A stretch of 64,000 nucleotides of DNA from contig CAZQHU010000003.1 of assembly GCA_964592785.1 (NCBI GenBank), positions 3,901-67,900 on the forward strand. Direction: 5' to 3'. The position numbers and the translations under genes were made by a program. Shown in pieces: positions 1 through 48,552 of the stretch (positions within the stretch are counted from its first letter, which is position 1; every line of letters starts with the position of its first letter). This stretch comes from an uncultured Gammaproteobacteria bacterium. GTDB lineage: Bacteria > Patescibacteriota > Patescibacteriia > Magasanikbacterales > UBA922. The notes beneath the pieces are model-generated. The model was given only the letters and a program-made list of their open reading frames with translations. It was not told the DNA's origin and made no database searches.

Positions 1-3000
1 GACGACAAAGTTTTTCAAAACCAGTAGCATAGACCGATACTCCTCGAGAATTGGTGTAAGCTTTACAACCCAAGGCCGCACCTGGGAAAGCATCACTCGG
101 ATTATCATCACAAGCTAGAGGCACATCATAACCGGCTGAAGTTTTCCAAGAATCTTTGACCCTATATAGGTGATCATCCAAACGAGTAATTTGTATATTA
201 TCAAAGAAATAACTGACTGGTTGTGTTCCTTGAGAAATAACAAAACGTAATTTGGCTACTTGGCTACCATCCCCAGTAAACTGTACTGGACCAAGTTTGT
301 ATTGTTGCCAACCAGTGCCAATACTCACACTAAAATCACCTTGAATATCACTGGAAGTAAAGCGCCCCTGAACTCCATTTTCTTCAAAATAAATATTACT
401 AATCACTGTCTCTGAACTACCTGTGCCTCTGGCCCAAAAACTTATTTCATACCAATCATTCCTTTCCAAAGTATTGGTGGCAAAAACATATTCAAAAGCT
501 CCAGCTTCTCCGGCCACTTGAGCTTGAACGTTCAAAGAATATTGCCCGACGACGATCGATTCGGGGCGAACTCTAAGATTTACATTATCAGTGAGACTAG
601 ACCAACCCTCCATGGCCTCATTGAGAGCATCGCTAGAAGTACCGGTCGGTTCAAAAGCAAAAGTTAAAATTTGTTTGATATTATTGCCAGCATTACCAAT
701 ATAGGCGCGACAGCCATTGGCAATGGCTGGACAAGAAGTGGATTCTCCGGTCCGAGAAATAGTCCAATAAACACAAGAACCATTCTCATAAGTTCCCCCG
801 CGATAACAACGGTTACATTCTCCATTTTGCATTACCCCGCCTCTGTTTGAACAAATAGCTGGATCACTAATACTATCATCCACATAAAATTCTGAGACTG
901 TTTTTCGGAGTGGATGACAACTTTGGTCCACAGTCACAGTTTCTTTGAGTAAACGATAATAAACTTGACCTTGGTCATCATAGAGCGCCCGGCAATCTTG
1001 TAGAGCCGCTCCAACCAAAGCTGGGCTTTGGAGCAACAGAGCATAAGCACTGGCATTACAATAAGTATAATTAAACTCCAAAGTTTGTTTATTATCATCC
1101 ACATAAGCTGGTCCCACTGCCAGTTCATTTTGCATTTCTGGGCTAAGACCCAAACCAGGACTTTGTAAATAATTTGCCTCTTCACTATCTACCGGCATCA
1201 AGCGATGAGTTTTCAAAACATAACCTTGATTGGCATCCCCTTCCCAAGAGTAGTAAGTTTTTTGGTTATTAGTTGTCGGTCGTTCACAATAACGAAGATC
1301 AGTATAATATTCCAATCCTTCTCCACCTTTGTTCAATTCATCAATATTGGTAAATTCATCACAACCAGCATACTGTGGTTCACAAGCTCGACCATCCAAA
1401 GGATTGAAATACATTGGGAAAACCACTGGAGAAAAGTTGGTTTTTTCTTGTTTATAAGTATCATAACCAACACATTCTTGACTGCAACTATTCTCTCCCA
1501 CTATGCCAGGTATTGTCACTCCGCCAGCAGTTGGCCGATAATTTTCACAACCCACTTCATCGGCCAAACAGACCTGAGCAAAATTTTTACATTCTGCCGG
1601 ACGATCGGCCAAAGATGCCAGCTCGACTGTGGTCCCTGGCCAATCTATTTCATCATCGGTCAAGTCTATATCATAACAACCCAAATAATCCGGGGCCCGA
1701 CGTAAATATACATCACCTGCTAGTTGTCCATCGTCAGTAATGCCACTAAATAAACTACAACCATCAGCACCCGAAGAACAAGTGTAGTTCTTGACTTTGT
1801 CATTCAAAAATAAAACTTGCGTACGACCCAACTCTTTGCGATCTTGCCAATCAGGATCGTCATCTATTTGTTCGCTATTTATCCATTGACCATTATTTTT
1901 TTCCAAAGAATAAGCCCGACAACCCACTGACTCACTATTACAAACTCCATAATCCAGAGTCCTGGCCAAATAAGAAGTCAATCGGCCATTACGATCACTA
2001 AAAGTAGTACAGGTATTATAATAAGGTTCACAACTAGTACCACCAATATCCCAAATATTTTTTTCTTTCAAACAATAACTAAAATAGCCCAGATTTTCAG
2101 GATTTTCTTCTTCTACTATGCGAGTAGAAATATCCACACAAACTTCTTGCCTTTGGGCCGATTCGCTATTTGTAAGAATTGGTCCTACTACTTTGGTCTC
2201 GCAACGAGCTTCAGGACTCTTGATAATCCAGTTGGGGTCAATAAGATGACAAAAGGGATGCGCTGTGCTAGGTTTGGCTTTGTCTGAAACACCATTAACT
2301 GTATCACCCAACCTGCCACTATTATTGGTATCTTCATAATCACAATCATCAAAACCTTGCACCACTTTACCCAAAGTCCAATCCTGTGGATTGTCTGGGC
2401 TGGCTTTCAAAGCTGCCAATTCAAAACCAATCGGCAATACTCGGGCCTTGCGTAATTTTTGTAAATTGGAATAACAATACCCTCGTAAAAAACAACCTGC
2501 AACATCTGTATTATCTGTCACTCGACGTGGCGAAATAAGTGGCCAGTCAGCATGAAGCATCCCATCTGTCAGAGCTTGCGCTATGGTTACCGGTTGATTA
2601 GTGCGAGCTCGTTGCAGAGCATCCTGTAAACCAGTATCAATAACACAATTATTTAATCCAGGATTATCAGGACAAGCGGCAAATTCATCGCTTGGAACAT
2701 AATTTTGTAGCTGTTGTGTAGAAACAGAAGCAATCAAAAATCCAAAAGTTTGTTCAGCTTGTTTGCGATTGTTAGCCACTTGCTGGGAATAAAAATCTAT
2801 CACATTATTACCAGATGAACCGCTTTTGTCACCGCTCAAAAGTCCAGAAGCCCAGCTGGTCAAACTTTTCAAAAGTTGAGAGGTCAAAGTATTGAGAAAA
2901 ACAGAGGCGGCCATTGGTAAAAGTTGTAATGAACCAGAACCATAAACGCCGGCAATCTGGCTGGTGCTTAATTCTGAACTTTGTTTAGAAGAAATTGATT

Positions 3001-3778
3001 CAGTTTCTTTTTTCACCACCTCAGCAGGAGTTTTTATTTTGCCACTAATAAGATCAGTGACAGCTTTAAATCCACCACCCTCAAGCCGAGAAGTATTGGC
3101 CCCGGCAATGGCATTAGCATTTATACGATCGATCCTACCCATAGCCCCAAGAGCAATACCAAAATCACTTTCTTCTATGCGGATGGAGTTGGCAAAAGTT
3201 TGTGATAAAAATTTACTGGCCCCAGCCCCATATCTTTCTTCAAAAGAATCCGCACTCCAAGCATTGGAAAGTTTTTGCCAATTACAAGAAGACTGTGGAC
3301 CGGTGCCGGCTTGTTTTACTGTTGGATCTGAATAAAGATTACGCAAACCTACTTGCAAAAAAGTATTCAAACGAATATCTGGAGTCTGACAAAGATTCAA
3401 ACCAAACTCTGTACCCAACTGTTCAATGGCGCTGGCCGCGCTGTCTAGAGCCACTCCTTTGAAATAAGTGCCAGCATCTTGATCAAAAACTAACGGCTTT
3501 TGACCTTTGGAACCAGAGACTACCGCCATGGCCGCGTCATAAGCCAATTTGCGCATAAAATAAGAAGCTGCTTGAAGCAAGGCTGACAAAGCAGCTGACT
3601 CTAGAGATTTCAAAATCTGGTCAGCCGAAACTTTACCAGTAAAAGCCGCTGTAATCGCCGCATCCATCTGGGCTTGAGCTGGTTTGGCAAAAGCTAAAAT
3701 TCCAAATAACTGAACAAAAATAAAGATCGCTACCATTAGTCCGAAAAATCTTTTTTTTGTCCTAGTAAAATTGAACAT
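1..3778 (-). CDS. Giant secreted cysteine-rich surface protein, over 1259 aa; C-terminus lies beyond the left edge of the window
   Basis: The minus-strand frame starts at ATG 3778 and reads MFNFTRTKKRFFGLMVAIFIFVQLFGILAFAKPAQA-QMDAAITAAF..., a signal peptide with an AQA cleavage site. The codon phase was checked at both ends (triplets starting at plus-strand positions congruent to 2 mod 3) and spot-checked for stops in several stretches. It is missing from the ORF track because there is no stop inside the window. No other long ORF occupies 1-3780. The body is Cys/Gly/Asn/Asp-rich, typical of CPR giant surface proteins. Confidence 0.6.
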   Translation of the reverse strand, partial: MFNFTRTKKRFFGLMVAIFIFVQLFGILAFAKPAQAQMDAAITAAFTGKVSADQILKSLESAALSALLQAASYFMRKLAYDAAMAVVSGSKGQKPLVFDQDAGTYFKGVALDSAASAIEQLGTEFGLNLCQTPDIRLNTFLQVGLRNLYSDPTVKQAGTGPQSSCNWQKLSNAWSADSFEERYGAGASKFLSQTFANSIRIEESDFGIALGAMGRIDRINANAIAGANTSRLEGGGFKAVTDLISGKIKTPAEVVKKETESISSKQSSELSTSQIAGVYGSGSLQLLPMAASVFLNTLTSQLLKSLTSWASGLLSGDKSGSSGNNVIDFYSQQVANNRKQAEQTFGFLIASVSTQQLQNYVPSDEFAACPDNPGLNNCVIDTGLQDALQRARTNQPVTIAQALTDGMLHADWPLISPRRVTDNTDVAGCFLRGYCYSNLQKLRKARVLPIGFELAALKASPDNPQDWTLGKVVQGFDDCDYEDTNNSGRLGDTVNGVSDKAKPSTAHPFCHLIDPNWIIKSPEARCETKVVGPILTNSESAQRQEVCVDISTRIVEEENPENLGYFSYCLKEKNIWDIGGTSCEPYYNTCTTFSDRNGRLTSYLARTLDYGVCNSESVGCRAYSLEKNNGQWINSEQIDDDPDWQDRKELGRTQVLFLNDKVKNYTCSSGADGCSLFSGITDDGQLAGDVYLRRAPDYLGCYDIDLTDDEIDWPGTTVELASLADRPAECKNFAQVCLADEVGCENYRPTAGGVTIPGIVGENSCSQECVGYDTYKQEKTNFSPVVFPMYFNPLDGRACEPQYAGCDEFTNIDELNKGGEGLEYYTDLRYCERPTTNNQKTYYSWEGDANQGYVLKTHRLMPVDSEEANYLQSPGLGLSPEMQNELAVGPAYVDDNKQTLEFNYTYCNASAYALLLQSPALVGAALQDCRALYDDQGQVYYRLLKETVTVDQSCHPLRKTVSEFYVDDSISDPAICSNRGGVMQNGECNRCYRGGTYENGSCVYWTISRTGESTSCPAIANGCRAYIGNAGNNIKQILTFAFEPTGTSSDALNEAMEGWSSLTDNVNLRVRPESIVVGQYSLNVQAQVAGEAGAFEYVFATNTLERNDWYEISFWARGTGSSETVISNIYFEENGVQGRFTSSDIQGDFSVSIGTGWQQYKLGPVQFTGDGSQVAKLRFVISQGTQPVSYFFDNIQITRLDDHLYRVKDSWKTSAGYDVPLACDDNPSDAFPGAALGCKAYTNSRGVSVYATGFEKLCR

Positions 3779-3792
3779 AATTTGCTAATTTT

Positions 3793-4518
3793 TTATTGGG
3801 TTGAACCAGAGGGAGTGGTTTCTTTGAGATAATCCACTCCTGATTCCAAGGCTGAAGCTGAATCCAAAATCTGCTCTCCTCCAACTTGTCCACCGGTTTG
3901 TTCTGACAAAAGTTCACCAACCATTTTCATCAAAGTTTCATCATCAATCTTGCTCAATTCACTTTCAGAAATGCCACCAGAATCAATCAGGAGTTGTCTG
4001 ACCTTGGCTGGATCTGACAAAGTGTACAAAACATTGGAAATATCATCATTTTCTACACCAGTAAGCCCGGCTTGAGACAAGACATCCACTGGAGTTACAA
4101 AACCAGAAGCCACTGGAGAAGTCATAGGTTCCACTGGAAGATTGGGGATAGATTGAGCACTTTCACAAACTTGGCCCTTGGGACAAAGAGGATCAGAACC
4201 AGATGTTATTTCTTCTTTATCACTCATACCATCTGAATCTGAATCTGGTAAATAGGGGCTGGTAAAATAAAAATTTAATTCTTCCCAATCATTCAAGCCA
4301 TCGTGATCAGTATCAATACTTTGCAGACGAGCTTCTTGATTGTCCAAAAGTTCAGACAAACCACTATTGTCCGAAAGATGAATAGCAAAAGGATTATAAA
4401 TAGTATTACGCATCTGTAAGACTCCCAAACTAACCGCCAATAAACCAAAAACTAACAATAAGACAAAACCTGTCTTTTGTGTATTTGTAAGACCGTCTTT
4501 CTTCCGGCTATCAAGCAT
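3793..4518 (-). CDS. Membrane-anchored protein with two Ca-binding-type DxDxDG motifs (DTDHDGLNDWEE, DSDSDGMSDKEE; thrombospondin-3/dockerin-like); probably co-transcribed with the giant protein
   Basis: ORF track. N-terminal TM helix FVLLLVFGLLAVSLGVL. There is a 14-nt gap to the start of the giant ORF on the same strand. Confidence 0.55.
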   Translation of the reverse strand: MLDSRKKDGLTNTQKTGFVLLLVFGLLAVSLGVLQMRNTIYNPFAIHLSDNSGLSELLDNQEARLQSIDTDHDGLNDWEELNFYFTSPYLPDSDSDGMSDKEEITSGSDPLCPKGQVCESAQSIPNLPVEPMTSPVASGFVTPVDVLSQAGLTGVENDDISNVLYTLSDPAKVRQLLIDSGGISESELSKIDDETLMKMVGELLSEQTGGQVGGEQILDSASALESGVDYLKETTPSGSTQ

Positions 4519-4661
4519 AAATAGATAACCAATTATGATCCCATTATAACAAAAAAATCACTTTTGAGCAATTTTTTTGTTAAAACTGGGGATAACATAG
4601 ACTATATTATGACAAAGCTTAAATTTTCAATCACCAATTTCCAATTCTCAATAAATTTTAT

Positions 4662-5549
4662 TCACTTGATTCCCAAGTTTTTCAATTTCTCTATGATTCT
4701 TTTCCAATCATCTACAGCCAATTCTTCAGCCCTGATTTTTTCATTATTCAAAACATCTTTTAAAACATTTTTTACTTTTTCATTCTCAATTTTCAATCCA
4801 ACTGATAAATTTTTATGCAACTGTTTCCTCTTGTTTGCAAATCCAGCTCTCACTACTCTAAAAAACTCCTCATCACTAATCTTTTCCCTCCCCTCGTAGG
4901 GGAGGGAAGGGATGGGTTTTGCTTTATTGTTTTCATGTTTTAATGTTTTAATGTGTAAAATCGCACTATCCACTTTCGGACTGGGCCAAAAATTTCCTCG
5001 TGAAACAATATCCACAATTTTGGGCTCACTATAATATTGAACTGAAACTGCCAGTAAACTCATATCGCCAGGTTTTGAACAAATCCGTTCGGCCACTTCT
5101 TTTTGTACCATAATAGTAATTGATTCTGGTTTATTTTCCAATTCTAAAAGAGCGCGTAAAACATTGGAAGTAATTTGATAAGGAAGATTGGCTACAACTT
5201 TGTAATTTATAATTTGAAATTTGAAATTTGAAATTTGAGTGAGTGCATTTCCCCAAATGATTTCTAAATTTTTTAATTTCTTGATTTCTATTTCTTCTTG
5301 CCAATACTCCCTCAACTTTTTCTCAATTTCAAATGCTACTACTTGCCTCGCCTTTTCTGCCAGGGCAAAAGTAAGCACCCCAAAACCCGGCCCGATCTCG
5401 ATCACTGTATCAGTCTTAGCCACTCCCGCCGCCTCAATCATTTTTTTTATCGGCCAATCTTGAATAAGATAATTTTGACCATACTTCTTGCTGGGAGTAA
5501 GGTCGTATTTACTACAAAGAGATTTGAGGATTGTAGGAGTAAGGGACAT
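4662..5549 (-). CDS. rsmA: 16S rRNA (adenine1518/1519-N6)-dimethyltransferase RsmA/KsgA; contains an in-frame palindromic insert and a 7-nt x4 tandem repeat
   Basis: KsgA-like motifs (GQNYLI, EIGPGFGVLT, NLPY). Confidence 0.85.
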   Translation of the reverse strand: MSLTPTILKSLCSKYDLTPSKKYGQNYLIQDWPIKKMIEAAGVAKTDTVIEIGPGFGVLTFALAEKARQVVAFEIEKKLREYWQEEIEIKKLKNLEIIWGNALTQISNFKFQIINYKVVANLPYQITSNVLRALLELENKPESITIMVQKEVAERICSKPGDMSLLAVSVQYYSEPKIVDIVSRGNFWPSPKVDSAILHIKTLKHENNKAKPIPSLPYEGREKISDEEFFRVVRAGFANKRKQLHKNLSVGLKIENEKVKNVLKDVLNNEKIRAEELAVDDWKRIIEKLKNLGIK

Positions 5550-5658
5550 AGACAGAAAGAATTTGAGATTTTTAATTTAGAATTTAAAAACAATTTATAA
5601 TTTTAAAATTAATTAATTTAAAATTGTTTAAAAATTAAAAATTTTAAATTAAAAATTA

Positions 5659-6828
5659 TTACTCGGTCTTCAGTCCTGCACTCGTGTATCTGTTGGAAGC
5701 ATTCCACAGTAACCACCCGGCATCACTATATTTCTCCACCATATCTATCTGCTCTCTAATGCGTATACCATCTGAATAAATCGCCCCCATGTCAAATGCT
5801 TGAAGCCAAGGACGAACTTTGGCTCTTTTACCTTCAAAAGTTGGCAAACCTTTTTTCATGCCATTTTCAATAATCCGTCCGGCGATTTCAGCTGGGTTAT
5901 CGTGACCTAATGAATTCCAAGCATAGTGTGAAGGATACATCATCGGACAAATAAAATCTGCCGAGTCTACTGCATCTACCAAGCGCTGACCGATACGCAT
6001 ATCATCGGTTCTCTCCATCACATAGCCAAACATATCGAGCGATATCCAGGCTGGTTCGCGATCAAGTTTATGGCGCAGATAAGAATAAAAACGATGCATC
6101 ACTTCTTGACGCGATTCATCACCAATATTATAAACCACCAAACTCATGTTGCCGTCCGAAGGAAAACGCACATAATCAAAATTTATTTCATCAAACCCTA
6201 GACGAATAACTTCTTTGGCAATCGCCACATTATAATTCCAAACTTCCACTCGTGTCGGATCTACCCAAGACAAGCCTTTGTTATCTCGCCACAGACCGCC
6301 ATTTTTTGATTTGATGGCCCACTCAGGTTTTTTATTGGCCAGTAAAGGATCCTGAAAAACAGTCTGACGAGCAATAGTATAAATATTATTTTCATGTAAT
6401 TTTTTCAGTAAAGCTTTCAGATCTCCCAATTGATTGTACTCCGCCCCAAACTCTTCTACCCAAAGCAAATTACTATCATACAAAACCTTGCCAGAATAAT
6501 CCTTGATATCAATGACCACAGCATTCAATTCAGTTTTATTTATAAGATCAATTATTTGCTCCATTTTTTTAGCATTACCGGCTGAATATGCGGTCAAATA
6601 AATCCCTTTGACTGTTTGTAAATTGTTTTTTTCTCGCTTGGGCTGAAGATTGTAGGATGAATTATCTTGAGAAACGATCGCCAACTCTTGCGCTCGTGTA
6701 GTCCCAACCCATTGCCAACCAATCAACAAAAAAGCCATCATTCCGATGATCATTATAAAAATTAAAAATAAACGAGGATGGTTGGACATAAAATTAAAAA
6801 AATAAGAAACTAAGAAACAATTCCTCAA
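5659..6828 (-). CDS. Membrane-anchored putative glycoside hydrolase-like TIM-barrel protein (DUF4015-like)
   Basis: N-terminal TM segment followed by a block resembling DUF4015 (GIYLTAYSAG...VIDIKDYSGK...INFDYVRFPSDG). The family assignment is from memory, not a search. Confidence 0.5.
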   Translation of the reverse strand: MRNCFLVSYFFNFMSNHPRLFLIFIMIIGMMAFLLIGWQWVGTTRAQELAIVSQDNSSYNLQPKREKNNLQTVKGIYLTAYSAGNAKKMEQIIDLINKTELNAVVIDIKDYSGKVLYDSNLLWVEEFGAEYNQLGDLKALLKKLHENNIYTIARQTVFQDPLLANKKPEWAIKSKNGGLWRDNKGLSWVDPTRVEVWNYNVAIAKEVIRLGFDEINFDYVRFPSDGNMSLVVYNIGDESRQEVMHRFYSYLRHKLDREPAWISLDMFGYVMERTDDMRIGQRLVDAVDSADFICPMMYPSHYAWNSLGHDNPAEIAGRIIENGMKKGLPTFEGKRAKVRPWLQAFDMGAIYSDGIRIREQIDMVEKYSDAGWLLWNASNRYTSAGLKTE

Positions 6829-7442
6829 TTTCTCAATTTTTCAATTTCCAATTTTCCTTGCCGTAAAACTTTCAACTCATCATTTACCACACTGACAATA
6901 GTGCTGGGAGGATTGTGGGGCAAAACACCGGCGTCAATAATTGCATCGGGTTGAAATTCTCGGTCTTCATACATCTTGATTAATTCCTGAGAATCATAAA
7001 TATCTCCTGCATCAGCAAGATTGGCCGAAGTTGCCACCACTGGCCTGCCCAGTTGTTCTGAAAGATATTTTGGTATTTCTGCATTCGTAACACGAACTGC
7101 CACTGTCCCATCAGTGCCAACTACTCCTTTTGCCAATTCACTAACTTTTACCTTTTCACTTTTCACTTTTAACTTGCTCACCACTGTCAAAGCTCCGGGC
7201 CACAACTTACTTAACTTCTCCAATTTATCATTCCAAACAAGATATTCTTTTGCCATCTCCACAGTCGGTACCACAACCAAGAGTGGTTTATCTGGTCTCC
7301 GTCCTTTGATTTGAAAAATTTTGTCCACAGCTTTTTGATCACAAGCATCACAACCAAGACCGTATGATGTCTCCGTAGGAAAAATTATTATTTTACCACT
7401 TTGGAGATAATCTAAAGCTTCAGTTTGACTAATAAATTTCAT
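6825..7442 (-). CDS. tsaC: L-threonylcarbamoyladenylate synthase TsaC/YrdC
   Basis: YrdC/Sua5-like sequence (IIIFPTETSYGLGCDA, KGRRPDKPLLVVV). Confidence 0.8.
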   Translation of the reverse strand: MKFISQTEALDYLQSGKIIIFPTETSYGLGCDACDQKAVDKIFQIKGRRPDKPLLVVVPTVEMAKEYLVWNDKLEKLSKLWPGALTVVSKLKVKSEKVKVSELAKGVVGTDGTVAVRVTNAEIPKYLSEQLGRPVVATSANLADAGDIYDSQELIKMYEDREFQPDAIIDAGVLPHNPPSTIVSVVNDELKVLRQGKLEIEKLRN

Positions 7443-7462
7443 AAAACTACATCACTTTTATA

Positions 7463-7858
7463 CTACATCACAAAATCACCTTGTGACAATTTTTCTGCTA
7501 ATTTAATTTCTGACCAAAGCATAGCGCCAATTTCCTCACCCAATTTTATCGCATGTTTGTATTGTTCATTTTTTATCCAGTCTGTATCTAAAGCAAAATA
7601 ATATAAATATCTTGATTCTCCAAGCGAACCATAGGACATTTCATAAAAATTTAACTTAACTTTCGGCCTTCTTCTACAATATCCTTCTACATAATTTAAA
7701 ATAACTGACAATGATGTCCTGCGCAATTGAGAAACTGATGAATACATTTCTTGTTTTGGAAAATCTTCTGTTATTTTGTAAGTATATTTTACAAATTCAT
7801 GCATTAATTTTTTTAATTTATTCTGAAATGGCGTCATCGTTTTTTCAAGCATAATCAT
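7463..7858 (-). CDS. Four-helix-bundle protein of the 23S rRNA intervening-sequence family
   Basis: Typical CPR four-helix-bundle protein. The track ORF 7463..7915 overlaps prfB, so the start was trimmed to the internal Met (MIMLEK...). Confidence 0.6.
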   Translation of the reverse strand: MIMLEKTMTPFQNKLKKLMHEFVKYTYKITEDFPKQEMYSSVSQLRRTSLSVILNYVEGYCRRRPKVKLNFYEMSYGSLGESRYLYYFALDTDWIKNEQYKHAIKLGEEIGAMLWSEIKLAEKLSQGDFVM

Positions 7859-7890
7859 TGTATAATTTAGTGATGTTGTGATGTAATGAC

Positions 7891-9000
7891 TTAGTGATTC
7901 AGTGACTTTCGCCATCTCAAATAACTTTCTACAAACCCATCCAGATCTCCATTCAAAACTCCTTCATCATCAGTCGTTTCGTGATCAGTTCGCAAATCTT
8001 TTACCAAATGATAAGGATGAAGTACATAAGAACGAATCTGGCTCCCCCATTCTGGAGATTTGTATTCACCACGTAATTTTTGTTTTTCCGCTTCTTCTTC
8101 CTCGTCTTTTATTTTTTGTAATTTGGATAATAAAATCTTCATCGCCACTTCTTTATTTTGTTGTTGTGATCTTTCATTTTGGCATTGTACAGTAATACCG
8201 GTCGGCAGATGAACAATCCTCACTGCTGAATAAGTAGTATTCACGGATTGCCCACCCTTGCCACCACTCATAAAAGTGTCTATACGTAAATCTTTGGAAT
8301 CAATCTGAATTGTTTCAGATTCATCAAGCTCTGGAATAACTTCCACTAAAGCAAAAGAAGTATGGCGCATTTTCTCGGCATCAAAAGGTGAAATCCGCAC
8401 CAAACGATGCGTGCCGTGTTCTGATTTCAAATGTCCATACGCATGATCCCCCTCAACCCGAAAAATAATTGATTTAAACCCAGCTTCCTGCCCTCTGGTT
8501 TCATCCAGAATAAAAACTTGCCAGTCCTTTTTTTCACAATAACGAAAATACATACGACTAAGCATCTCTGCCCAATCTTGGGCTTCGGTCCCACCCGAGC
8601 CAGCATGAATCGCGACAATAGCACCGTGATCATCATATTTTTCACTCATCAATGTTGTAAATTCCAACTTTTCAACTTGTTCGCTTGCCAATTCATATTG
8701 TTTCTCAATCTCTTCCCGTAAATTTACATCCTTGTCTGCCTCATCAAATCTCGCCATTTCTAATAAATCATTTATTTGTTGAGACAATTTTAACCAATTA
8801 TTTTGTTCACTTTGTAAATAACTAAGTTGCTTGCTTATCTTGGCTGCATTTTCTTGATCATTCCAAAAATCAGGAATATTCATTTTTTCTTCCAAATTTT
8901 TTATTTCTTGCTTTTTTTGTTCCAATTTTAACATCACTTGTAAATCTACAAGTTTTTTATTTAACCTTTCCAAAGATTGAACAAGTTCATGCATTTCCAT
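7891..9000 (-). CDS. prfB: Peptide chain release factor 2
   Basis: SPF and GGQ motifs (RISPFDAEK; [12 protein letters not shown]). The ORF is continuous, with no programmed +1 frameshift. Confidence 0.9.
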   Translation of the reverse strand: MEMHELVQSLERLNKKLVDLQVMLKLEQKKQEIKNLEEKMNIPDFWNDQENAAKISKQLSYLQSEQNNWLKLSQQINDLLEMARFDEADKDVNLREEIEKQYELASEQVEKLEFTTLMSEKYDDHGAIVAIHAGSGGTEAQDWAEMLSRMYFRYCEKKDWQVFILDETRGQEAGFKSIIFRVEGDHAYGHLKSEHGTHRLVRISPFDAEKMRHTSFALVEVIPELDESETIQIDSKDLRIDTFMSGGKGGQSVNTTYSAVRIVHLPTGITVQCQNERSQQQNKEVAMKILLSKLQKIKDEEEEAEKQKLRGEYKSPEWGSQIRSYVLHPYHLVKDLRTDHETTDDEGVLNGDLDGFVESYLRWRKSLNH

Positions 9001-9007
9001 AATAAAT

Positions 9008-9367
9008 CTACAAATTTATCTTCCCAGCATACTGACCAATCCAAGGTAATTCTTTCATTTGTCCTTGAGCAGCATTGACAATACCTACAATCATGAGAAC
9101 CAGACAGGCGATATTACCCACAAAGCCGGCTATCCAACCAAGAACAGGAACAATCATCACAGCATTTACTATTACCCAAGCGATGAGTAATACCAAACCT
9201 TGTTTACCATGATATTGGGCATATTGACTATCTTTTTTGAGAAGCAATGGGATCAAACAAAGAATACCCAGATAACTAATCATTGCCAAAATTTTATTTT
9301 CTTGAATATCCTGAGGTCCTGATTTAACTTGAACTGGCTGGACAGGTTGATTTGACTGTTGATCCAT
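9008..9367 (-). CDS. Small integral membrane protein, 3 TM (DUF4870-like)
   Basis: ORF track; hydrophobic profile. Confidence 0.5.
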   Translation of the reverse strand: MDQQSNQPVQPVQVKSGPQDIQENKILAMISYLGILCLIPLLLKKDSQYAQYHGKQGLVLLIAWVIVNAVMIVPVLGWIAGFVGNIACLVLMIVGIVNAAQGQMKELPWIGQYAGKINL

Positions 9368-9423
9368 ATATTTTTCTTAAAAATTAAATTTATCTAACTA
9401 TATTTTAGCTTATTTTAAGAATA

Positions 9424-9452
9424 TTGACAACAAAACTATTCTATGTTAGCAT
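9424..9452 (+). promoter_or_regulatory. Sigma70-type promoter (TTGACA-17-TAGCAT) of GC-rich cassette a
   Basis: TTGACA at 9424-9429 followed by a 17-nt spacer. Confidence 0.4.
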
Positions 9453-9479
9453 AAAAATGCCTAAGAGAAGGAGTCCCAC

Positions 9480-9617
9480 ATGTTCTGGAAGGAAAGGCTC
9501 CTGGATTTCAAGGACTGGCTTCGAAGGATTTTCCGTCGAAGCGCCAAGATCGAGGTGGGGTTTGACTCCACCATGTTCCCTCCCCCCGGACACTCCCAGC
9601 CCACCAAGAAATCCTGA
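9480..9617 (+). CDS. GC-rich small ORF of 45 aa (cassette a); frame chosen by its Shine-Dalgarno site
   Basis: GAAGGAG sits 6 nt upstream of ATG 9480. The region is about 58% GC in an AT-rich genome. The motif tccgttcttt follows the TGA stop. The alternative 70-aa frame from ATG 9457 has no SD and a Pro/Ser-rich product. Confidence 0.4.
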   Translation: MFWKERLLDFKDWLRRIFRRSAKIEVGFDSTMFPPPGHSQPTKKS

Positions 9618-9706
9618 CTCTCCGTTCTTTCCCGCCTCCAACCCTCCAGTTCCTTCCCCAGAGTCTTGAATTTATTCAAAATTTTGGAAAAAACTGGAGG
9701 AACATA

Positions 9707-9740
9707 TAAAAACGACCGGATATTCTCCGATCGTTTTTTG
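9707..9740. terminator. Bidirectional intrinsic terminator (A-run, hairpin, T-run)
   Basis: aaaaACGACCGGatattctCCGATCGTtttttt. Confidence 0.5.
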
Positions 9741-9743
9741 ATT

Positions 9744-9810
9744 GTCATCCTGAATTTATTTCAGGATCTTTTATTTTTAAGGGAGATGCTGAAACAAGTT
9801 CAGCATGACA
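9744..9810. repeat. Two-hairpin MITE-like element, copy 1 (GTCATCCTGAAtttaTTCAGGATC ... GATGCTGAAacaagTTCAGCATGAC)
   Basis: Near-identical to the copy at 33606-33698 and to the ends of 51796-51920. It lies immediately after the groEL stop. Confidence 0.75.
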
Positions 9811-11453: not shown

Positions 11454-11566
11454 TTAAAATTTATTAAACTCAAAGTTCAAAACTCAAAATGCAAAATTTA
11501 AACTTCATAACTCAAAACTTTTTAGTTTTTAGTTGTAGTTTTGATTTTTGATATTTGAGTTTTGAG

Positions 11567-11857
11567 TTATTCAATAATAGCTAATATCTTCTCACTCTCA
11601 AGTATTTTATATTCTTCACCCTCAACTTTAACTTCCTCCCCTCCCCATTTTTCAAATAAAACTCGATCACCAACTTTTACTTCCATAGTAGCACGCTCAC
11701 CAGACTCTAATAATTTACCCGGACCAATAGCCACGATTTCACCTTCGGCTTTTTTTTGTTTATCGACTGTATCAGGGAGAACAATCCCAGACGCAGTCAC
11801 TTCTTCCTCCTTGATTGGTTTGACCAAGACTCGGTCACCCAGTGGTTTTATATTCAT
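11567..11857 (-). CDS. groES: Co-chaperonin GroES
   Basis: MNIKPLGDRVLVKP... The track ORF extends upstream through the CIRCE site; the start was trimmed to the conserved MNIKPL. Confidence 0.9.
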   Translation of the reverse strand: MNIKPLGDRVLVKPIKEEEVTASGIVLPDTVDKQKKAEGEIVAIGPGKLLESGERATMEVKVGDRVLFEKWGGEEVKVEGEEYKILESEKILAIIE

Positions 11858-12373: not shown

Positions 12374-13813
12374 TTAACTGGGGAGTTCTTGTGGGTTACT
12401 CTTCAAAATTAGGCCCCAAAAGACAGCTGAAAGTGCCAAACCAACAAAAGAAGAATAAAGATAATGGTCAAAAGACATTAAAACAAGAAAACAAAAAAAC
12501 AAAAAAACAAAATCGGGGAGATTTTTTGTTTTATCGCTTTCTTGATTTTTTGATAAAAAATAAATGATAAATGATACACTCACAAAAACTAACAAGATTA
12601 TCCCCACTATCCCCCCTTCAGCTATAAACAATACCAAAGTATTGTGTACTGGTTGATATTCCCAACCAACGCGAGCAGGGTCTGCGAGATAAGCTGACAG
12701 AGTATAATTCCCCGCCCCCACACCCAAGATCGGTTGTTTTTTAAACAATTGCCAGGCTTCATCATAACCAGAAATTCTCTCAGTAGCAGAACGAACTTCA
12801 GAAATTGATTGTCCGGAAAAACGAGTTTGAACCAACGGAAAATAAATTACTGACAAAATAACAAAACACGTAACGCCAAACACATACCATATAACCTTGA
12901 CTTTTTGATATGTGATATGTGATATGTGATATGTAATAAATAATCCAACCGCTATGGCCAACCAGGCACTTCTACTAAAGGTGAAAAATAATGCAACAAA
13001 CGATAAAAAATAAACAATAAAAAATAAAATATTTCTCATTCCTCGCCCCTCGTTCCTCAAATTAACAATATGACAATGTAACAATGTAACAATCACTACC
13101 ACCAAATACCCACCGAAAATATTCGGATGACTAAAAGGTCCATAAGCTCGGAGCCAACGCCCGATAGTTTCACTTTGAACAATTGAAGTCCCTGCTTGCC
13201 AAGAAGGATGATCCGCCAAACCCAAAAGGGTGCTGGCAAAAGTTGTTTGAGATAAAAACTGCCAAATACCTAAAATTGCTGGAAAAATCGTCCCATAAAT
13301 AAACCATTTAAGCAAATTTTCTTTTTCAAAAGGACCAATAAAAATAATTAAAAATAATAAAATTGCTTCCATCACACGCAGTGATTGTTGGAGAGCCAAA
13401 GATTTATCACTAGACCAGACGATAGATAATAAATTATAGACGATAAATAATAAACAAGTGAATAAAAATATTCTGTCTTTCGTCAAACTAAATTTCTTAA
13501 TTTCCAAATTTCTTAATTTTCTCTCTTTCCAAAACCAAACAATAAACAAAACAACAATTACCCAAAGTAAAATCTCCGTCCCACAAAAACCCAAAGTTCC
13601 ATATTCCCATTTCACCCCATTCAAAAAAGATTCCCGATAAATCCAAATCGTTTGCCAAGGCAAAACAAAAAGAAATAAGTAAGTTAAGAACTGTATTATT
13701 TTTTCTAATTTTAATTGTATATTTAATTTTTCTAACACAATACTTAATTTGAAATTTATAATTTTTAATTTAAAAACAATTTTAAATATTAAAATATTGT
13801 TTAAAAATTTCAA
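12374..13813 (-). CDS. O-antigen ligase / Wzy-like polytopic membrane protein; contains (tgatatg)x4
   Basis: More than 10 TM helices and a FTFSRSAWLA motif typical of the Wzy_C/O-antigen ligase family. Confidence 0.6.
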   Translation of the reverse strand: MKFLNNILIFKIVFKLKIINFKLSIVLEKLNIQLKLEKIIQFLTYLFLFVLPWQTIWIYRESFLNGVKWEYGTLGFCGTEILLWVIVVLFIVWFWKERKLRNLEIKKFSLTKDRIFLFTCLLFIVYNLLSIVWSSDKSLALQQSLRVMEAILLFLIIFIGPFEKENLLKWFIYGTIFPAILGIWQFLSQTTFASTLLGLADHPSWQAGTSIVQSETIGRWLRAYGPFSHPNIFGGYLVVVIVTLLHCHIVNLRNEGRGMRNILFFIVYFLSFVALFFTFSRSAWLAIAVGLFITYHISHITYQKVKVIWYVFGVTCFVILSVIYFPLVQTRFSGQSISEVRSATERISGYDEAWQLFKKQPILGVGAGNYTLSAYLADPARVGWEYQPVHNTLVLFIAEGGIVGIILLVFVSVSFIIYFLSKNQESDKTKNLPDFVFLFFCFLVLMSFDHYLYSSFVGLALSAVFWGLILKSNPQELPS

Positions 13814-13821
13814 ATTAAAAA

Positions 13822-14754
13822 TTAAAAAATCTTTTTACACTTCTCCAACCACTTATCTCTATACTCTTCCCTTTTGTCTTTCTCATGAAACTTGAGTATT
13901 GAATCGGAAACAACCACTCGTGTATCATTAGCATTTTGTACGCTTGTATAATTCAGTTTCATTTTGGCCAACTGTGCTCCCTTAGCCTGCTTCTCCAGTA
14001 AATTTCCATATTCTCCACCCCACATTTTCTCTATTAACCCCTTAAACCACTTTCCACTTTCCACTTTCCACTTTCCACTTTCCACATTTTTCAATCCATT
14101 CACCAAATATTTATTCACCCAACCATTAGCTCGCAAAACATCCTCGTGCAAATCATCTGGATCGTAGACTGGAATTAAATTATTCAACCAATTAACCAAA
14201 TAAATGTCATCTTTGATGGCGATCTTCTCTAAATTCAAATTATCATCAGCTAAATAAAAACTCAAACAAATTTTGTTATTTATTTTCTTCTTGGTACGGC
14301 GTAAACGGAACAAACTTAAGACTAAAACCGACAATACCCGCACCAAAAATATCCGCCCTTTTCTTGCAATAATCAAAATATCAATATCACTATCTTTGTC
14401 AGCTGTCCCCATGGCGACAGTATTGCAAACAAAAACCGCACGTACAAAAGGTATAGCAAATAACTTTTTAATTCCTCGCTTGGCGATCTTCATTTTCTTT
14501 TCTATCCATTTTACTTTATTCTGACGCACCGCGACTACTTCTTCCTGACCTGGCAAGAAATAAAACCCCCGGCTTTGCTCCACTACACCGTGCAAGCTGT
14601 CCAACTGAATCAAAAACTCAGTATAATCTAATTTAAAATCAGTATAATCAGTGTATAAAAACCGCCACAATTCTTCTTTTGTCAAAGGATATTCAAAAAT
14701 ATCCCAATAGGCCAAAGTTTGTAAAATTGATTTTTGTAGTTTTTCTTGTTCCAT
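13822..14754 (-). CDS. Nucleotidyltransferase-fold protein; contains (tttccac)x5
   Basis: GTADKDSDIDILII motif, characteristic of the Pol-beta-type NTase fold. Confidence 0.5.
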   Translation of the reverse strand: MEQEKLQKSILQTLAYWDIFEYPLTKEELWRFLYTDYTDFKLDYTEFLIQLDSLHGVVEQSRGFYFLPGQEEVVAVRQNKVKWIEKKMKIAKRGIKKLFAIPFVRAVFVCNTVAMGTADKDSDIDILIIARKGRIFLVRVLSVLVLSLFRLRRTKKKINNKICLSFYLADDNLNLEKIAIKDDIYLVNWLNNLIPVYDPDDLHEDVLRANGWVNKYLVNGLKNVESGKWKVESGKWFKGLIEKMWGGEYGNLLEKQAKGAQLAKMKLNYTSVQNANDTRVVVSDSILKFHEKDKREEYRDKWLEKCKKIF

Positions 14755-15154: not shown

Positions 15155-15199
15155 ACTTTATAACTTTATGGACTTTATAAACTTGATAGACTTTCCATT

Positions 15200-20623: not shown

Positions 20624-21001
20624 CTAATCAAGCTCCAAAATATATTTTTTAAATTTAATTGTTTTGGCTTCACGATCAAGATAAACGCTCACGTGTTCAA
20701 AACGCATCTCTGTATCATACATATCTATATTTTTATATTGGCAATACTGTTTAGCGGCAAAAAATAATTTTTTCATCTTCAGCTGGTCAGTAGCTTGTTC
20801 GGCATTGGCAAATTCTTCCCAATAAGTTCTGGTTTTTACTTCTATAAAACAGATAGCTTCGCCTTGTTTCCCCACAATATCTATTTCTCCACCTACTGCA
20901 TAAAAATTGCGATCCAAAATCTCATAACCCTGACGGATTAAAAAAGAGCACGCTTGGCTCTCTCCCCACTGGCCTATCTTTTTTCCATCTACTGAACACA
21001 C
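20624..21001 (-). CDS. yraN: YraN/UPF0102 family endonuclease
   Basis: GESQACSFLIRQGYEILDRNF...GEIDIV...FIEVKTR. Confidence 0.75.
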   Translation of the reverse strand: MCSVDGKKIGQWGESQACSFLIRQGYEILDRNFYAVGGEIDIVGKQGEAICFIEVKTRTYWEEFANAEQATDQLKMKKLFFAAKQYCQYKNIDMYDTEMRFEHVSVYLDREAKTIKFKKYILELD

Positions 21002-21053
21002 AAATAATAATTTAAAATTAAAATATTAAAAATTTTAAATTAAAAATTCAACA

Positions 21054-21608
21054 TCAGTCATGTTTAAACAACACCAACCCATGATGATACGGCCCCATGT
21101 CAAACTCTTCCTGAACTACGAAGCCGTGCAAAGTACACCAGCGCTTTATATCTGAAAAATCCACATAGCGCTCGCTTGGCGGCGCAAAAGGTAAACCACG
21201 TTTCGACCAATCAACCACCAAGAGTCTGGCTTTATCTTTTAATAAACGCCAAGCTTCTTCCAAAATAGCATGCCGGTTGTCGGACTGGTTTAGAACATTG
21301 ATAACAAAGGCTGCATCCAAACTGCGTGAAGGAATAGCTGTATGCCCCACTGCTTCCAAATTGGACCAAACTGTTTGTACTGCCGGCAGACATTCCATAT
21401 CAGCTCGTTTTTTAATTTCTGCCAAAATATCTTTCAAAACATCAACTGCATAAACAATGCCTCGCTCTCCCACAAAAGCTGCTGCTGGAAAAACCACATG
21501 ACCAACGCGACCGCAACCCAAATCAGCTATATGCATACCCGGATGTAGCTTGGCTTTGAGAAAAAGTTCTTCTACATCTATCAATTGACTGCCAGAGCTA
21601 TAAGTCAT
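21054..21608 (-). CDS. Class I SAM-dependent methyltransferase
   Basis: HIADLGCGRVGH glycine-rich SAM motif. Start trimmed to MTYSSG. Confidence 0.6.
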   Translation of the reverse strand: MTYSSGSQLIDVEELFLKAKLHPGMHIADLGCGRVGHVVFPAAAFVGERGIVYAVDVLKDILAEIKKRADMECLPAVQTVWSNLEAVGHTAIPSRSLDAAFVINVLNQSDNRHAILEEAWRLLKDKARLLVVDWSKRGLPFAPPSERYVDFSDIKRWCTLHGFVVQEEFDMGPYHHGLVLFKHD

Positions 21609-24789: not shown

Positions 24790-24867
24790 ACATTATTACT
24801 TTATAAACTTTTTAACTTTACAAACTTTAAACTACCCCGTACTGCTGTACCAGTACAAAAGTATTAT

Positions 24868-31573: not shown

Positions 31574-31641
31574 AAAGTTCATCAAGTTCATAAAGTCTTT
31601 AAAGTCACCAACTTTATAAACTTTATAACTTTACAAACTTT

Positions 31642-33099
31642 ATGAACTGGTTCAAAAAATATTACCCTCTTCTTATCATTATTCTACTTGGCCTAATACT
31701 CCGTCTTTTTGTAATAATTAAGTATGGTTCATTCTGGGATGACGAAATGTTCAGCTTTGTTTTTAGTCAAAAATCCTGGACAGAAAGTTTTGTTTATTGG
31801 CTCTATGAAACCAACCCGCCTCTGCACTTGTTGTTTTTGAAAATTTGGTTTTATTTTTTACCGGCTAGCGAATTTTTCGCCAGATTACCCAGTCTCTTAT
31901 TTGCTCTCGCCACCATACCTCTCGTCTATTTACTGGGAAAAAATTGGCAAGGAAAAATGACCGGCTATATCACCGCTTTTTATCTAGCTCTTCATCCTTA
32001 CCATATCTTTTGGTCAGCTACTGCCAGGACTTATACCCTAACAATTTTTTTAACTACCGGCGCAGTTTATTTTTTTTATAAAATATTTTTTCTGGAAGAA
32101 AAAAATAGAAAAAATTATTTGGGTCTGGCCATTTTCAACCTACTCTCACTATTATCACACTTATCCGCTAGCTCAATCATACTCACACAAATTTTGTTAT
32201 TGCTCTACAAAAAAACAAATTTCAAACTCTGGTGGCAGATAAATATTACCCCTCTAATTCTCGCTGGCTCTTGGCTAATCTCTTCGCTTTGGTTGAAAAT
32301 GTCTAATCTAAATAAATCGTGGTTTTTCAATTTGAATCATGATCTAGATACATTTCTCACTCCTCTATCTAATATTTTCCTCGGCGTCTACCCACCAAAA
32401 ATGACTTTACTTTTCATTATTCCCCTACTAATTATTTTGTTTATTTTTCTCAGTAAAAAAATTAAAGAAAAAGCAGAAAAAACTTTTGTCATCTTGGCTA
32501 TCGCTCTCCTACCGATGTTTATTTCTTTTTTCTTAAATCTCTGGCATATCAAATTTTTCCTAGTCAGTTTGCCTTTTTGGCTCTTATTGGTAGCTGGAGC
32601 TTTTGCAGAAGTTTTGAAAAACAAAAAATTAATTTTTATAGCCTTGGGATTATTTTGTAGTAGTGGACTTATTTTTTTATGGTCTTTCTTGCCACTGACA
32701 AACTGGCAACCACTGCAAAAATATCTCACTACAAATTTTAATCCAGCCAAAAAACAAGCTCTGGTTTATAACAACTACATATTGGACCCACAAATAGAAA
32801 AGTACTTGAAACCGCCACAAGAAAACATGCCTTTTGTAATAGAATCAGAAAAAAATTGGGAAGATTGGGCAGTAAAAAGAAATTATCTTTATATTAAATA
32901 CTCCCAAGAACAGCTAACAAATTGGCTATCAAAAAATAATTTATTTGCCAATCAAGAAATCTTTCTTATTCAGGGCGAATATGATTACATGACCAATTTA
33001 AATAAATTACTGGAAAAAAATAATTATATTTTAGAGCAACCTGCTTGGCGTTTGCCTATTCTCGGTCGTTATTATCTCTATCACTATGTCAAAAATTGA
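31642..33099 (+). CDS. GT39/GT83-family glycosyltransferase (ArnT/PMT-like), polytopic
   Basis: N-terminal DDE-containing loop, more than 10 TM helices, and the family architecture. Confidence 0.65.
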   Translation: MNWFKKYYPLLIIILLGLILRLFVIIKYGSFWDDEMFSFVFSQKSWTESFVYWLYETNPPLHLLFLKIWFYFLPASEFFARLPSLLFALATIPLVYLLGKNWQGKMTGYITAFYLALHPYHIFWSATARTYTLTIFLTTGAVYFFYKIFFLEEKNRKNYLGLAIFNLLSLLSHLSASSIILTQILLLLYKKTNFKLWWQINITPLILAGSWLISSLWLKMSNLNKSWFFNLNHDLDTFLTPLSNIFLGVYPPKMTLLFIIPLLIILFIFLSKKIKEKAEKTFVILAIALLPMFISFFLNLWHIKFFLVSLPFWLLLVAGAFAEVLKNKKLIFIALGLFCSSGLIFLWSFLPLTNWQPLQKYLTTNFNPAKKQALVYNNYILDPQIEKYLKPPQENMPFVIESEKNWEDWAVKRNYLYIKYSQEQLTNWLSKNNLFANQEIFLIQGEYDYMTNLNKLLEKNNYILEQPAWRLPILGRYYLYHYVKN

Positions 33100-34193: not shown

Positions 34194-34393
34194 TTGAAAA
34201 TTTTCAAACGGCTTATAAATTAGCCAATTTTTGACTAATGTCTAGGCCGTTTGAGGCTTAGGGAACAGAAAAACTACTGTTGAAGGAGTGGCCTGTATAG
34301 GGGGCAACTACCGAGACCTTTTTGAAGGTCATTACAGCAAGTTTCTGTTTTCCCGACTTCCTGTTCCGCCCGAGGCGGACAAGAGGAGGTACC

Positions 34394-35161: not shown

Positions 35162-35180
35162 ACACTGTTCGTTCTTTAGA

Positions 35181-35232
35181 GGGGCGCCGACCGGTTGAGT
35201 TGAGATTTACTTCTCCTCCCGGTCGGCGCCCC
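35181..35232 (+). repeat. Conserved 3' hairpin of cassette d (14-bp stem GGGGCGCCGACCGG / CCGGTCGGCGCCCC)
   Basis: Cassette e carries GTCCGACCGG/CCGGTCGGAC, a compensatory variant, and shares the loop start ttgagtt. Confidence 0.7.
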
Positions 35233-35239
35233 GATGTAA

Positions 35240-35306
35240 TCAAGTGTTTGTAAAATATTTTGTAAATAGTTGAAAATAAAAAATCCGCTGATAAGGCGGT
35301 TTTTTT
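35240..35306 (+). repeat. Conserved cassette 3' module, copy B, plus terminator
   Basis: tcaagtgtttgtaaaatattttgtaaatagttgaaaataaaaaat-CCGCTGataaGGCGG-ttttttt. Confidence 0.8.
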
Positions 35307-35341
35307 GTTTGTCATCCCTTTTGTAAAAGGTAAGATGGGTA

Positions 35342-35370
35342 TTGACAAAAACACAAAAATAAGCCAATAT
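35342..35370 (+). promoter_or_regulatory. Promoter TTGACA-17-CAATAT of cassette e
   Basis: Shares the spacer motif aaaataagc with the promoter at 34165. Confidence 0.55.
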
Positions 35371-35408
35371 TGTTATAGGAAATTCGTCATCTACAGGAGG
35401 TTTTCTCA

Positions 35409-35747: not shown

Positions 35748-35792
35748 CCATCCGCCCGAGTCAGGGCAAACCAAATTGTTTCGTTCTTTAGC

Positions 35793-35841: not shown

Positions 35842-35847
35842 AATCCA

Positions 35848-41620: not shown

Positions 41621-43906
<2,286 letters not shown>

Positions 43907-47629: not shown

Positions 47630-47638
47630 TAAAAAACT

Positions 47639-48545: not shown

Positions 48546-48552
48546 AAGAAAT

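Follow-up and report, generated by a model that had tools for sequence, protein, structure and literature searches.

Short heptanucleotide tandem arrays inside core and surface-polysaccharide genes of a Magasanikbacteria-like genome

Heptamer arrays, their host genes and their abundance

Within a 64,000-nt stretch of contig CAZQHU010000003.1 (GenBank assembly GCA_964592785.1, positions 3,901 to 67,900 of the forward strand; hereafter the window), tandem arrays of 7-nt units lie inside protein-coding genes, including the core genes rsmA, prmC and miaB and the gene of an O-antigen ligase/polymerase-like membrane protein. The source genome is AT-rich (GC about 39%) and is that of a bacterium of the candidate phyla radiation (CPR) close to Candidatus Magasanikbacteria. 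The best MiaB relatives are metagenome-assembled genomes of Patescibacteria (58-59% identity), and the homologues of RsmA and of a nucleotidyltransferase-like (ntp-like) protein that carry names belong to Candidatus Magasanikbacteria. Arrays in the window were called by Tandem Repeats Finder (TRF), which also supplied unit counts and percentages of match. They comprise 2.1-7.7 units, and 10 arrays of period 7 and 10 of period 8 lie inside open reading frames (ORFs). The arrays and genes under study are the following.

4662-5549, minus strand: rsmA/ksgA gene (NCBIfam TIGR00755, 215 bits against a cut-off of 171)
5199-5238, minus strand: rsmA heptamer array, 5.7 units, 90% match, with the core (AATTTGA)x4 at 5211-5238; on the coding strand (AAATTTC)x3 followed by AAATTAT and AAATTAC, encoding QISNFKFQIINYK in the loop between 'WGNAL' and 'VVANLPY'
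4923-4954 and 5260-5289: further octamer arrays in rsmA
7142-7175, minus strand: heptamer array (TAACTTT-like)x4.9 in a Sua5/YrdC-family gene (6825-7442)
11466-11568: intergenic inverted pair, (AAACTCA)x7.7 and (TTTTGAG)x7.3, a long hairpin with a fold z-score of -6.2
12374-13813, minus strand: Wzy_C gene (Wzy-like), O-antigen ligase/polymerase-like membrane protein of 479 amino acids (Pfam PF04932)
12906-12938, minus strand: Wzy-like gene heptamer array (TGATATG)x4.7, 96% match, encoding FITYHISHITYQ
12480-12512 (8-mer), 12551-12576 (7-mer), 12984-13029, 13063-13093 (8-mer), 13491-13519 (8-mer) and 13745-13772 (7/14-mer): other arrays in the Wzy-like gene
13822-14754, minus strand: ntp-like gene, 310 amino acids with a GTADKDSDID motif, a conserved Magasanikbacteria/CPR protein
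14047-14085, minus strand: ntp-like gene array, 5.6 units of TTTCCAC, 100% match; (GTGGAAA)x5.6 on the coding strand, encoding VESGKWKVESGKW
33086-34006, plus strand: prmC/hemK gene (NCBIfam TIGR03534, 218 bits against a cut-off of 199)
33844-33872, plus strand: prmC heptamer array GACTTCG (GACTACA)x3, with (GACTACA)x3.1 at 33851-33872 (100% match), encoding DYRLQTT between the helix ...YYRELLKQI and the strand VFCEIN
45253-45327: intergenic inverted pair, (GACNACN)x4 (45253-45282) and (TGTAGTC-like)x4.7 (45295-45327), a long hairpin
59333-60712, minus strand: miaB gene, probable start 60673 (NCBIfam TIGR01574, 419 bits against a cut-off of 355)
60034-60064, minus strand: degenerate miaB heptamer array TAGTCCN x4.4, 83% match; CGACTAC AGACTAC GGACTAT GGACTAT on the coding strand, encoding YRLQTTDYGLL

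A first-pass annotation, made from the sequence alone, had listed six of these arrays, five of them in ORFs. All six are present, including the intergenic one at 45295-45327, and the five ORFs are intact, as it had stated. Its list was nevertheless only a subset: the array of the Sua5-like gene is missing from it, as are two further rsmA arrays and no fewer than eight of the Wzy-like gene. The names that it gave to RsmA, PrmC and MiaB pass the NCBIfam equivalog cut-offs and the Wzy_C domain is found, whereas the ORF that it called a nucleotidyltransferase has no match in Pfam or NCBIfam. The name "predicted nucleotidyltransferase" is attached by the Joint Genome Institute to some homologues of this ORF only.

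The number of heptamer arrays greatly exceeded expectation. Four perfect heptamer arrays of at least three units occur in the window, compared with none in 50 dinucleotide shuffles, and TRF found 18 non-overlapping period-7 arrays where third-order Markov controls predicted 2.6, an excess of about 7-fold. By the same comparison, period 8 (11 vs 2.8) and period 9 (13 vs 2.5) were also overrepresented. We then considered 80 loci (560 kb) surrounding ntp-like orthologues in public metagenomes, a sample of loci rather than of whole genomes. In these clade loci, 176 arrays of period 7 were observed against 28 expected, with further excesses at period 14 (59 vs 7.7) and period 8 (96 vs 31), and period 10 was not enriched (37 vs 35). 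A non-CPR control of 66 loci (1.04 Mb) had 36 period-7 arrays against 40 expected, hence no excess; the enriched periods there were 6, 9 and 12 alone, as is usual for coding DNA. Twelve loci from other CPR bacteria showed a modest period-7 excess (16 vs 6). Since the non-CPR loci, AT-rich ones included, show none, the heptamer excess is a trait of this lineage rather than of bacteria or AT-rich DNA in general. The earlier suggestion of a repeat-generating process rather than chance is thus borne out, with an excess that is lineage-wide and whole-unit slippage that was directly observed once (see below).

The arrays of the clade are short and diverse. Their length has a median of 3.6 units and a maximum of 7.6, and a single one of 114 reaches six units or more. 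Among the 190 clade arrays there are 98 canonical units, the GC of which averages 0.22; no unit dominates apart from A/T-rich ones, and the commonest specific unit, AAATTTC, accounts for 8 arrays. About 70% of the arrays (80/114) lie fully within ORFs, as do 10 of the 18 in the window. Gene edges and intergenic DNA have 2.8 times the array density of ORFs, at 6.6 against 2.4 per 10 kb.

The Wzy-like gene is a pronounced hot spot. Across 34 loci it contains 65 of the 114 period-7 arrays, a 10-fold higher density (13.9 vs 1.4 per 10 kb), and in the window it holds 9 TRF arrays, or 6.25 per kb. We considered tolerance of membrane segments as a sufficient cause of this concentration and ruled it out: in the other polytopic membrane genes of the window, a PMT_2-like protein with eight transmembrane (TM) segments has no array and two others have one each.

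The unit GACTACA (reverse complement TGTAGTC) recurs in the window. Dimers of it with up to 3 mismatches match 14 times where 2.3 matches are expected, and they cluster at three loci, namely prmC, miaB and the inverted pair that lies 7 nt upstream of a secE-like ORF (45334-45519; fold z-scores -4.7 and -6.5). The first-pass annotation had taken this shared unit as a sign of a repeat-generating process; the recurrence is real but atypical, and the process is not unit-specific, because the 190 arrays of the clade use 98 units.

Array slots in the proteins and among relatives

To place the arrays in the encoded proteins, we aligned three of them to solved structures and also used orthologue alignments. 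The RsmA array falls in a loop, from 'GNAL' to 'VVANLPY', that is shorter than in Bacillus subtilis KsgA and contains no net insertion. The MiaB array directly follows the conserved LLGQxVNxY strand, in a loop 2 amino acids longer than in the closest relatives, and its 'YR' aligns with a native YR of B. uniformis MiaB. In PrmC, the array segment is about 6 amino acids longer than in Thermotoga maritima HemK and equal in length to that of Magasanikbacteria-like orthologues. The ntp-like array occupies a variable linker around a conserved W-x-V. All aligned homologues of the ntp-like protein, RsmA and PrmC run full length through the array slot, and relatives at 57-74% amino acid identity have a segment of equal length there, often itself a heptamer array. 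One RsmA homologue (P0130) carries the peptide ISNFQFPISNF. Because close orthologues have segments of equal length at these sites, the arrays sit in variable, length-conserved segments and not in lineage-specific insertions.

Comparison of the slots among relatives revealed the same sites filled with different units. In a sister species (Logan SRR22387796), whose proteins are about 72-74% identical to those of the window, the ntp-like slot holds (GTGGAAT)x4 (locus L081) in place of (GTGGAAA)x5.6, and the prmC slot (L170) reads GACTATA GACTATA GACTATC GACCATA, at the same site and with the same length as the window array. The rsmA slot of a Magasanikbacteria orthologue (L171, 64-65% identical) reads AAATTAC (GAGTTAC)x2 GGTTTAC GAGTTAC, covering the same 42 nt in an identical register. 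In the Wzy-like family, at least 9 of 35 orthologues have arrays in the same alignment columns, and two pairs of orthologues (L136/L137 and L104/L108) have slots of identical length with different units. Slots therefore keep their position and length even between species whose proteins differ at 20-40% of positions. Such replacement of units at a fixed total length is concerted evolution by slippage or conversion, since one and the same substitution in every unit is not plausible by independent point mutation. The ntp-like array also appears to have a visible proto-repeat origin: the conserved W-K-V-E/D codons TGGAAAGTGGA already amount to 1.6 units, and an orthologue that is 65% identical (L099) has a degenerate AGTGGAA x3.1 at the array site.

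Other repetitive segments of prmC behave differently. Rickettsia palindromic elements (RPEs) were reportedly described by Ogata and colleagues in 2000 as selfish DNA inserted in frame in protein-coding genes. In both cases housekeeping genes accommodate repetitive DNA in frame, at surface sites that are permissive, but the heptamer arrays arise in place and leave the segment length unchanged relative to close orthologues. On this ground we rejected an insertion model, in which the arrays would have entered the genes as the palindromic elements of prmC did. When segments were compared for an RPE-like insert, the array slots had the same length in close orthologues, whereas other segments of prmC did prove to be inserts. 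One of these, at 33608-33700, is an in-frame dispersed palindromic element with two small hairpins, CCTGAATTTATTTCAGG and ATGCTGAAACAAGTTCAGCAT, which encodes HPEFISGS...MLKQVQHD. Its second hairpin has an exact copy at 9786-9808 (element 9773-9810) and a copy with 2 mismatches at 51896-51918 (element 51883-51920), and contigs of close relatives end within about 15 nt of these two copies (L082 at about 9771, L086 at 51919). The element looks like an RPE or a miniature inverted-repeat transposable element. The second segment, at 33444-33486, is an in-frame GC-rich hairpin insert, CCCCACCCTACCCTCCCCTACAAGGGGAGGGAAAGGGAGAGG, encoding PTLPSPTRGGKGRG. At both sites, other CPR PrmC orthologues carry GC-rich or palindrome-type peptides of their own, and in the sister species a GC-rich insert of 27 nt lies close to the 3' end of prmC. 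GC-rich peptides resembling the prmC insert also occur in RsmA (SLPYEGRE) and in the Wzy-like protein (NLRNEGRGMRN).

Two further genes with arrays carry additional repeats or insertions. At 5069/5070 in rsmA, four assemblies of close relatives have a 24-nt in-frame insertion, CGTTCGGCAGGCTCACGACAAGCA (RSAGSRQA), which is missing from the window and from all other aligned RsmA orthologues; the gene of the close relatives is called from an internal Met and has 267 amino acids. Many ntp-like orthologues from different Magasanikbacteria, among them P0002, P0005, P0006, P0014, P0021 and P0026, share a C-terminal tail, ISNSPNF, that in L081 (1020-1100) is encoded by a tandem 16-mer, AATTTCTAATTCACCT x2, running into the stop codon. 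The tail is a conserved repeat-containing motif at the 3' end of this gene.

Unit number in close relatives and competing explanations

The first-pass annotation had regarded the 7-nt arrays as substrates for slipped-strand phase variation. It is true that a change by one unit would shift the frame, but in the assemblies and orthologues compared we found neither length variation of genic arrays nor OFF alleles. Over window positions 3-9771, where relatives assembled in Logan are 93-97% identical, the rsmA heptamer array and six other arrays show no change in unit number in up to four independent assemblies. Three point substitutions fall in arrays, and all indels lie elsewhere; the array of the Sua5-like gene, for instance, has an unchanged unit number and one substitution in the relative L082. 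Among the five arrays that had been flagged, this close-strain comparison covers the one in rsmA; for the ntp-like, Wzy-like, prmC and miaB arrays no assembly above 90% identity was obtained, and look-ups of the exact proteins MiaB, PrmC, L31, ORF 60799-61470 and P0001 gave no match. Positions 45744-51919 show zero indels in four assemblies that are 99.6-99.7% identical, the contigs of which begin at 45744 and so exclude the array at 45253-45327. Among near-identical pairs of metagenomic loci (99.4-99.99% identity), about 110 arrays yielded one unit change, in an intergenic octamer, CACCTAAN, present in four copies in one genome and five in the other (L116 5933-5965 vs L117; genomes 99.7% identical), about 40-75 nt upstream of the ntp-like gene. 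No other difference in unit number came up in the analysis. Whole-unit slippage thus occurs, rarely, and was seen where it is harmless. None of the 35 Wzy-like orthologues is frameshifted; each is a single ORF of 430-506 amino acids with up to 10 arrays.

Known contingency tracts provide a useful comparison. In Haemophilus influenzae, the heptanucleotide tracts of the hmw promoters, whose unit number modulates expression, have 13-38 units, and in one strain an (AATTTTG)14 tract lies inside hmw1a, the ORF of which is frameshifted; genomes of about 1.8 Mb have 0-4 heptanucleotide simple sequence repeats (SSRs) of at least three units (PMC2651432). The hmw1A/hmw2A tracts share with the present arrays a 7-nt unit, slipped-strand mispairing and the property that an in-ORF tract would shift the frame, but they are strain-variable and give ON/OFF or graded expression (PMC2651432, PMC8262952). 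The arrays studied here are always in frame and invariant among the close strains compared, and at 2-7.7 units they fall short of the tract length that goes with hypermutability in H. influenzae (PMC2651432). As far as consensus assemblies can tell, the switch hypothesis fails, and the proposed phase switching of core genes is not supported: array length is stable and the slots are kept in relatives.

We consider it likely that the arrays are short 7-nt SSRs (8-nt ones are enriched too) which arise by unit-wise slippage or intra-array conversion and persist as mutational by-products under purifying selection, and that they are not on/off switches of rsmA, prmC and miaB. The diversity of the units (98 in 190 arrays) argues for generic slippage, and purifying selection is suggested because array density is lower in ORFs and all 35 Wzy-like ORFs are intact. 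Arrays would begin as proto-repeats and grow by slipped-strand mispairing; unit-wise replication slippage or intra-array conversion would then both create them and keep them homogeneous, in a process whose activity, or whose tolerance by the genome, may be unusually high in the Magasanikbacteria lineage of the CPR. In genes, they would survive only where the protein tolerates nearly any sequence of a set length, as in loops, linkers and some TM segments. A heptamer array is read in all three frames, three units giving a 7-amino-acid repeat, and a slot could keep its position, register and total length because selection on frame and segment length would forbid a net change of one or two units, while one variant repeatedly overwrites the units (concerted evolution). 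Homogenisation might proceed by loss and regain of three units at a time, or by conversion that leaves the length as it is. This molecular route, the cause of the preference for 7 and the neutrality of the arrays are the parts of the explanation that we infer.

The closest known phenomenon is the excess of heptanucleotides among long prokaryotic SSRs. Heptanucleotides are the most abundant class of long SSRs in most prokaryotic genomes, and polymerase slippage, with the footprint of DNA polymerase as the reason for the 7-nt preference, has been proposed as their origin (Mrazek et al. 2007, as summarised in PMC4679880 and PMC4692102). Insofar as these summaries describe them, such long SSRs have much in common with the present arrays: period 7 is the most enriched non-triplet period, units are diverse, slippage has been put forward as the cause, array density is higher outside genes, and length and sequence vary among related species. 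The differences are that about 70% of the arrays here lie in ORFs, core genes included, whereas the literature so summarised stresses intergenic repeats and expects coding units to be multiples of three, and that here we find a CPR/Magasanikbacteria lineage, conserved slots with unit replacement and a hot spot in one gene family. Our literature search turned up no account of heptanucleotide or other tandem repeats for Patescibacteria or for Magasanikbacteria; what is new here is the occurrence in a CPR lineage, together with the slots inside genes and the 10-fold Wzy-like hot spot.

Several points weigh against slippage under purifying selection as a full account. No mechanism is demonstrated here by which units could be homogenised at constant length, and a one-unit intermediate in an essential gene would be a frameshift. 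Minority length variants would be hidden by consensus assemblies, the data used, and the close-strain data cover just rsmA among the five flagged arrays. Pure tolerance does not account for the 10-fold Wzy-like hot spot, nor does generic slippage predict a GACTACA family at three loci of the window. The hot spot and this recurrence leave a small probability for a selected surface-glycan role or a more specific repeat process. One such scenario, which we regard as unlikely yet worth keeping in view, is that Magasanikbacteria possess a lineage-specific, heptamer-biased repeat-writing or homogenising activity (e.g., a property of the replicase or of repair) that overwrites the slots, and that the concentration in the Wzy-like gene is a selected, low-rate, multi-site device for diversifying or switching a surface enzyme of this episymbiont.

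The remaining explanations fare less well. That the arrays are contingency loci, in which one unit more or less turns rsmA, prmC, miaB and the ntp-like and Wzy-like genes off and on, is improbable in our estimation. A one-unit change shifts the frame in every flagged gene, the clade does have whole-unit slippage, surface-polysaccharide genes such as Wzy are phase-variable elsewhere and the Wzy-like gene is a strong hot spot, and a frameshifted hmw1a with an in-ORF heptanucleotide tract is known from H. influenzae (PMC2651432). However, the tracts are short (median 3.6 units), no genic array varies in unit number among the close strains compared, array length is conserved between species, and several arrays are degenerate (e.g., the miaB and rsmA arrays, with 83% and 90% match). 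The Wzy-like genes, with roughly 130 arrays in total, are all in frame, and switching off housekeeping genes for a translation factor and for tRNA or rRNA modification would seem implausible in a reduced genome. A sequence-specific dispersed family, comparable to the cyanobacterial STRR sequences and TAACTGA, with units spread or inserted by a dedicated process and arrays that could be bound by protein or RNA or have a structural role, seems improbable. It would suit the GACTACA family, found at three loci in 64 kb with the same coding-strand orientation in prmC and miaB and an inverted pair before secE, as well as the strong hairpins formed by intergenic inverted arrays; inverted pairs also occur among the heptamer repeats of Xanthomonas and Nostoc (PMC4692102). 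Known families of this kind include the cyanobacterial STRR, GGGGA(T/C)T in Nostoc, GGGAATC in Xanthomonas and TAACTGA in Beggiatoaceae and cyanobacteria, and they likewise form few-unit heptamer arrays at many loci, some as inverted pairs giving hairpins and some immediately before start codons; in a few cases, sets of TAACTGA even occur within ORFs and are translated as 7-amino-acid repeats (LSVISYQ) (PMC4692102, PMC4679880). Yet these families use one or few units and are mainly intergenic, whereas the arrays here are mostly genic and so diverse that only GACTACA recurs in the window and no unit dominates apart from A/T-rich ones; the count of units, which in a defined family would be few for all arrays, comes from 64 kb plus the flanks of one gene. 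Moreover, genic arrays are no insertions relative to close orthologues but arise from native codons, and the unit at one slot differs between relatives.

Selection on the product, in which functional 7-amino-acid peptide repeats or a functional periodicity of mRNA or DNA would maintain the nucleotide repeats, is likewise improbable. The K-F-K-I-Q-N-S repeats after TM2 of Wzy, which are amphipathic, would be one example and binding by a heptamer-reading protein another; CspB-type proteins can bind heptamer repeats (cited in PMC4679880). Slot position and length are conserved over large distances, the hot spot is gene-specific, and an alternation of basic and hydrophobic residues is kept in the Wzy loop repeats of many orthologues. 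Peptide-level selection, however, would not keep the 7-nt periodicity of the DNA or the identity of units at synonymous positions, intergenic DNA has the same excess, and the peptides diverge among relatives (VESGKWKV vs MECGMWNV; DYRLQTT vs DYRLSTI vs TYNLKPK; ISNFKFQ vs ITSYELR). Finally, it is exceedingly improbable that the arrays reflect chance in low-complexity AT-rich sequence or assembly error. The low GC content of the genome and of many units points that way, but the excess is 6-7-fold over both third-order Markov and dinucleotide controls, AT-rich non-CPR loci lack it, period 10 is not enriched, and independent assemblies of four sequencing runs contain exactly the same arrays.

Non-triplet SSRs in CPR genomes should not automatically be annotated as phase-variation switches; tract length, comparison of strains and OFF alleles are the tests to apply. 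The arrays also provide a clean case of concerted evolution of non-triplet repeats in essential genes under a length constraint. Protein segments are repeatedly rewritten while frame and length are held, which bears on protein novelty in the reduced, fast-evolving genomes of the CPR. For assembly, arrays longer than the k-mer, together with dispersed palindromes, break short-read assemblies.

Further repeats and genes in the window

Intergenic DNA of the window contains additional repeat families. Arrays of a 9-mer, ACTTTATAA, with 3-4.6 units lie at 15155-15194, 24798-24829, 31574-31648 and 41632-41667, and in three of the four the array stops right at a start codon or no more than about 10 nt from one. 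The 9-mer array at 31574-31648 is preceded by an inverted AAAGTNNAT array, with which it forms a hairpin (z = -4.4). These arrays are possible regulatory, promoter or terminator elements.

Three GC-rich islands (34258-35852, 44100-45120 and 57274-57650) have a GC content of 0.50-0.56, compared with 39% for the genome, and overlapping ORFs on both strands. Their longest ORFs have no Pfam match and the islands no Rfam match; the islands could represent foreign DNA or else RNA genes not yet described. Rfam searches at gathering and E-value thresholds returned a tRNA-Leu plus sub-threshold hairpin-like matches and nothing else. A gene for a 23S-rRNA-intervening-sequence protein or bAvd-like four-helix bundle (PF05635, weak PF22296) lies at 7463-7915 between prfA and the Sua5-like gene; we noticed no reverse transcriptase near it.

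Relatives from the same sequencing runs are 93-97% identical over 3-9771, a region that includes the gene of a giant protein (>2,900 amino acids), and 99.6-99.7% identical in the ribosomal-protein region 45744-51919. This difference between two regions in the same runs suggests strongly uneven divergence or recombination along the genome. Lastly, a family of AT-rich motifs resembling TAAAAATTTTAAATTAAAAATT, partly of period 7 or 14, occurs intergenically at 5601-5662, 13774-13830, 20999-21055 and 46105-46161, where the motifs adjoin the starts or ends of genes.

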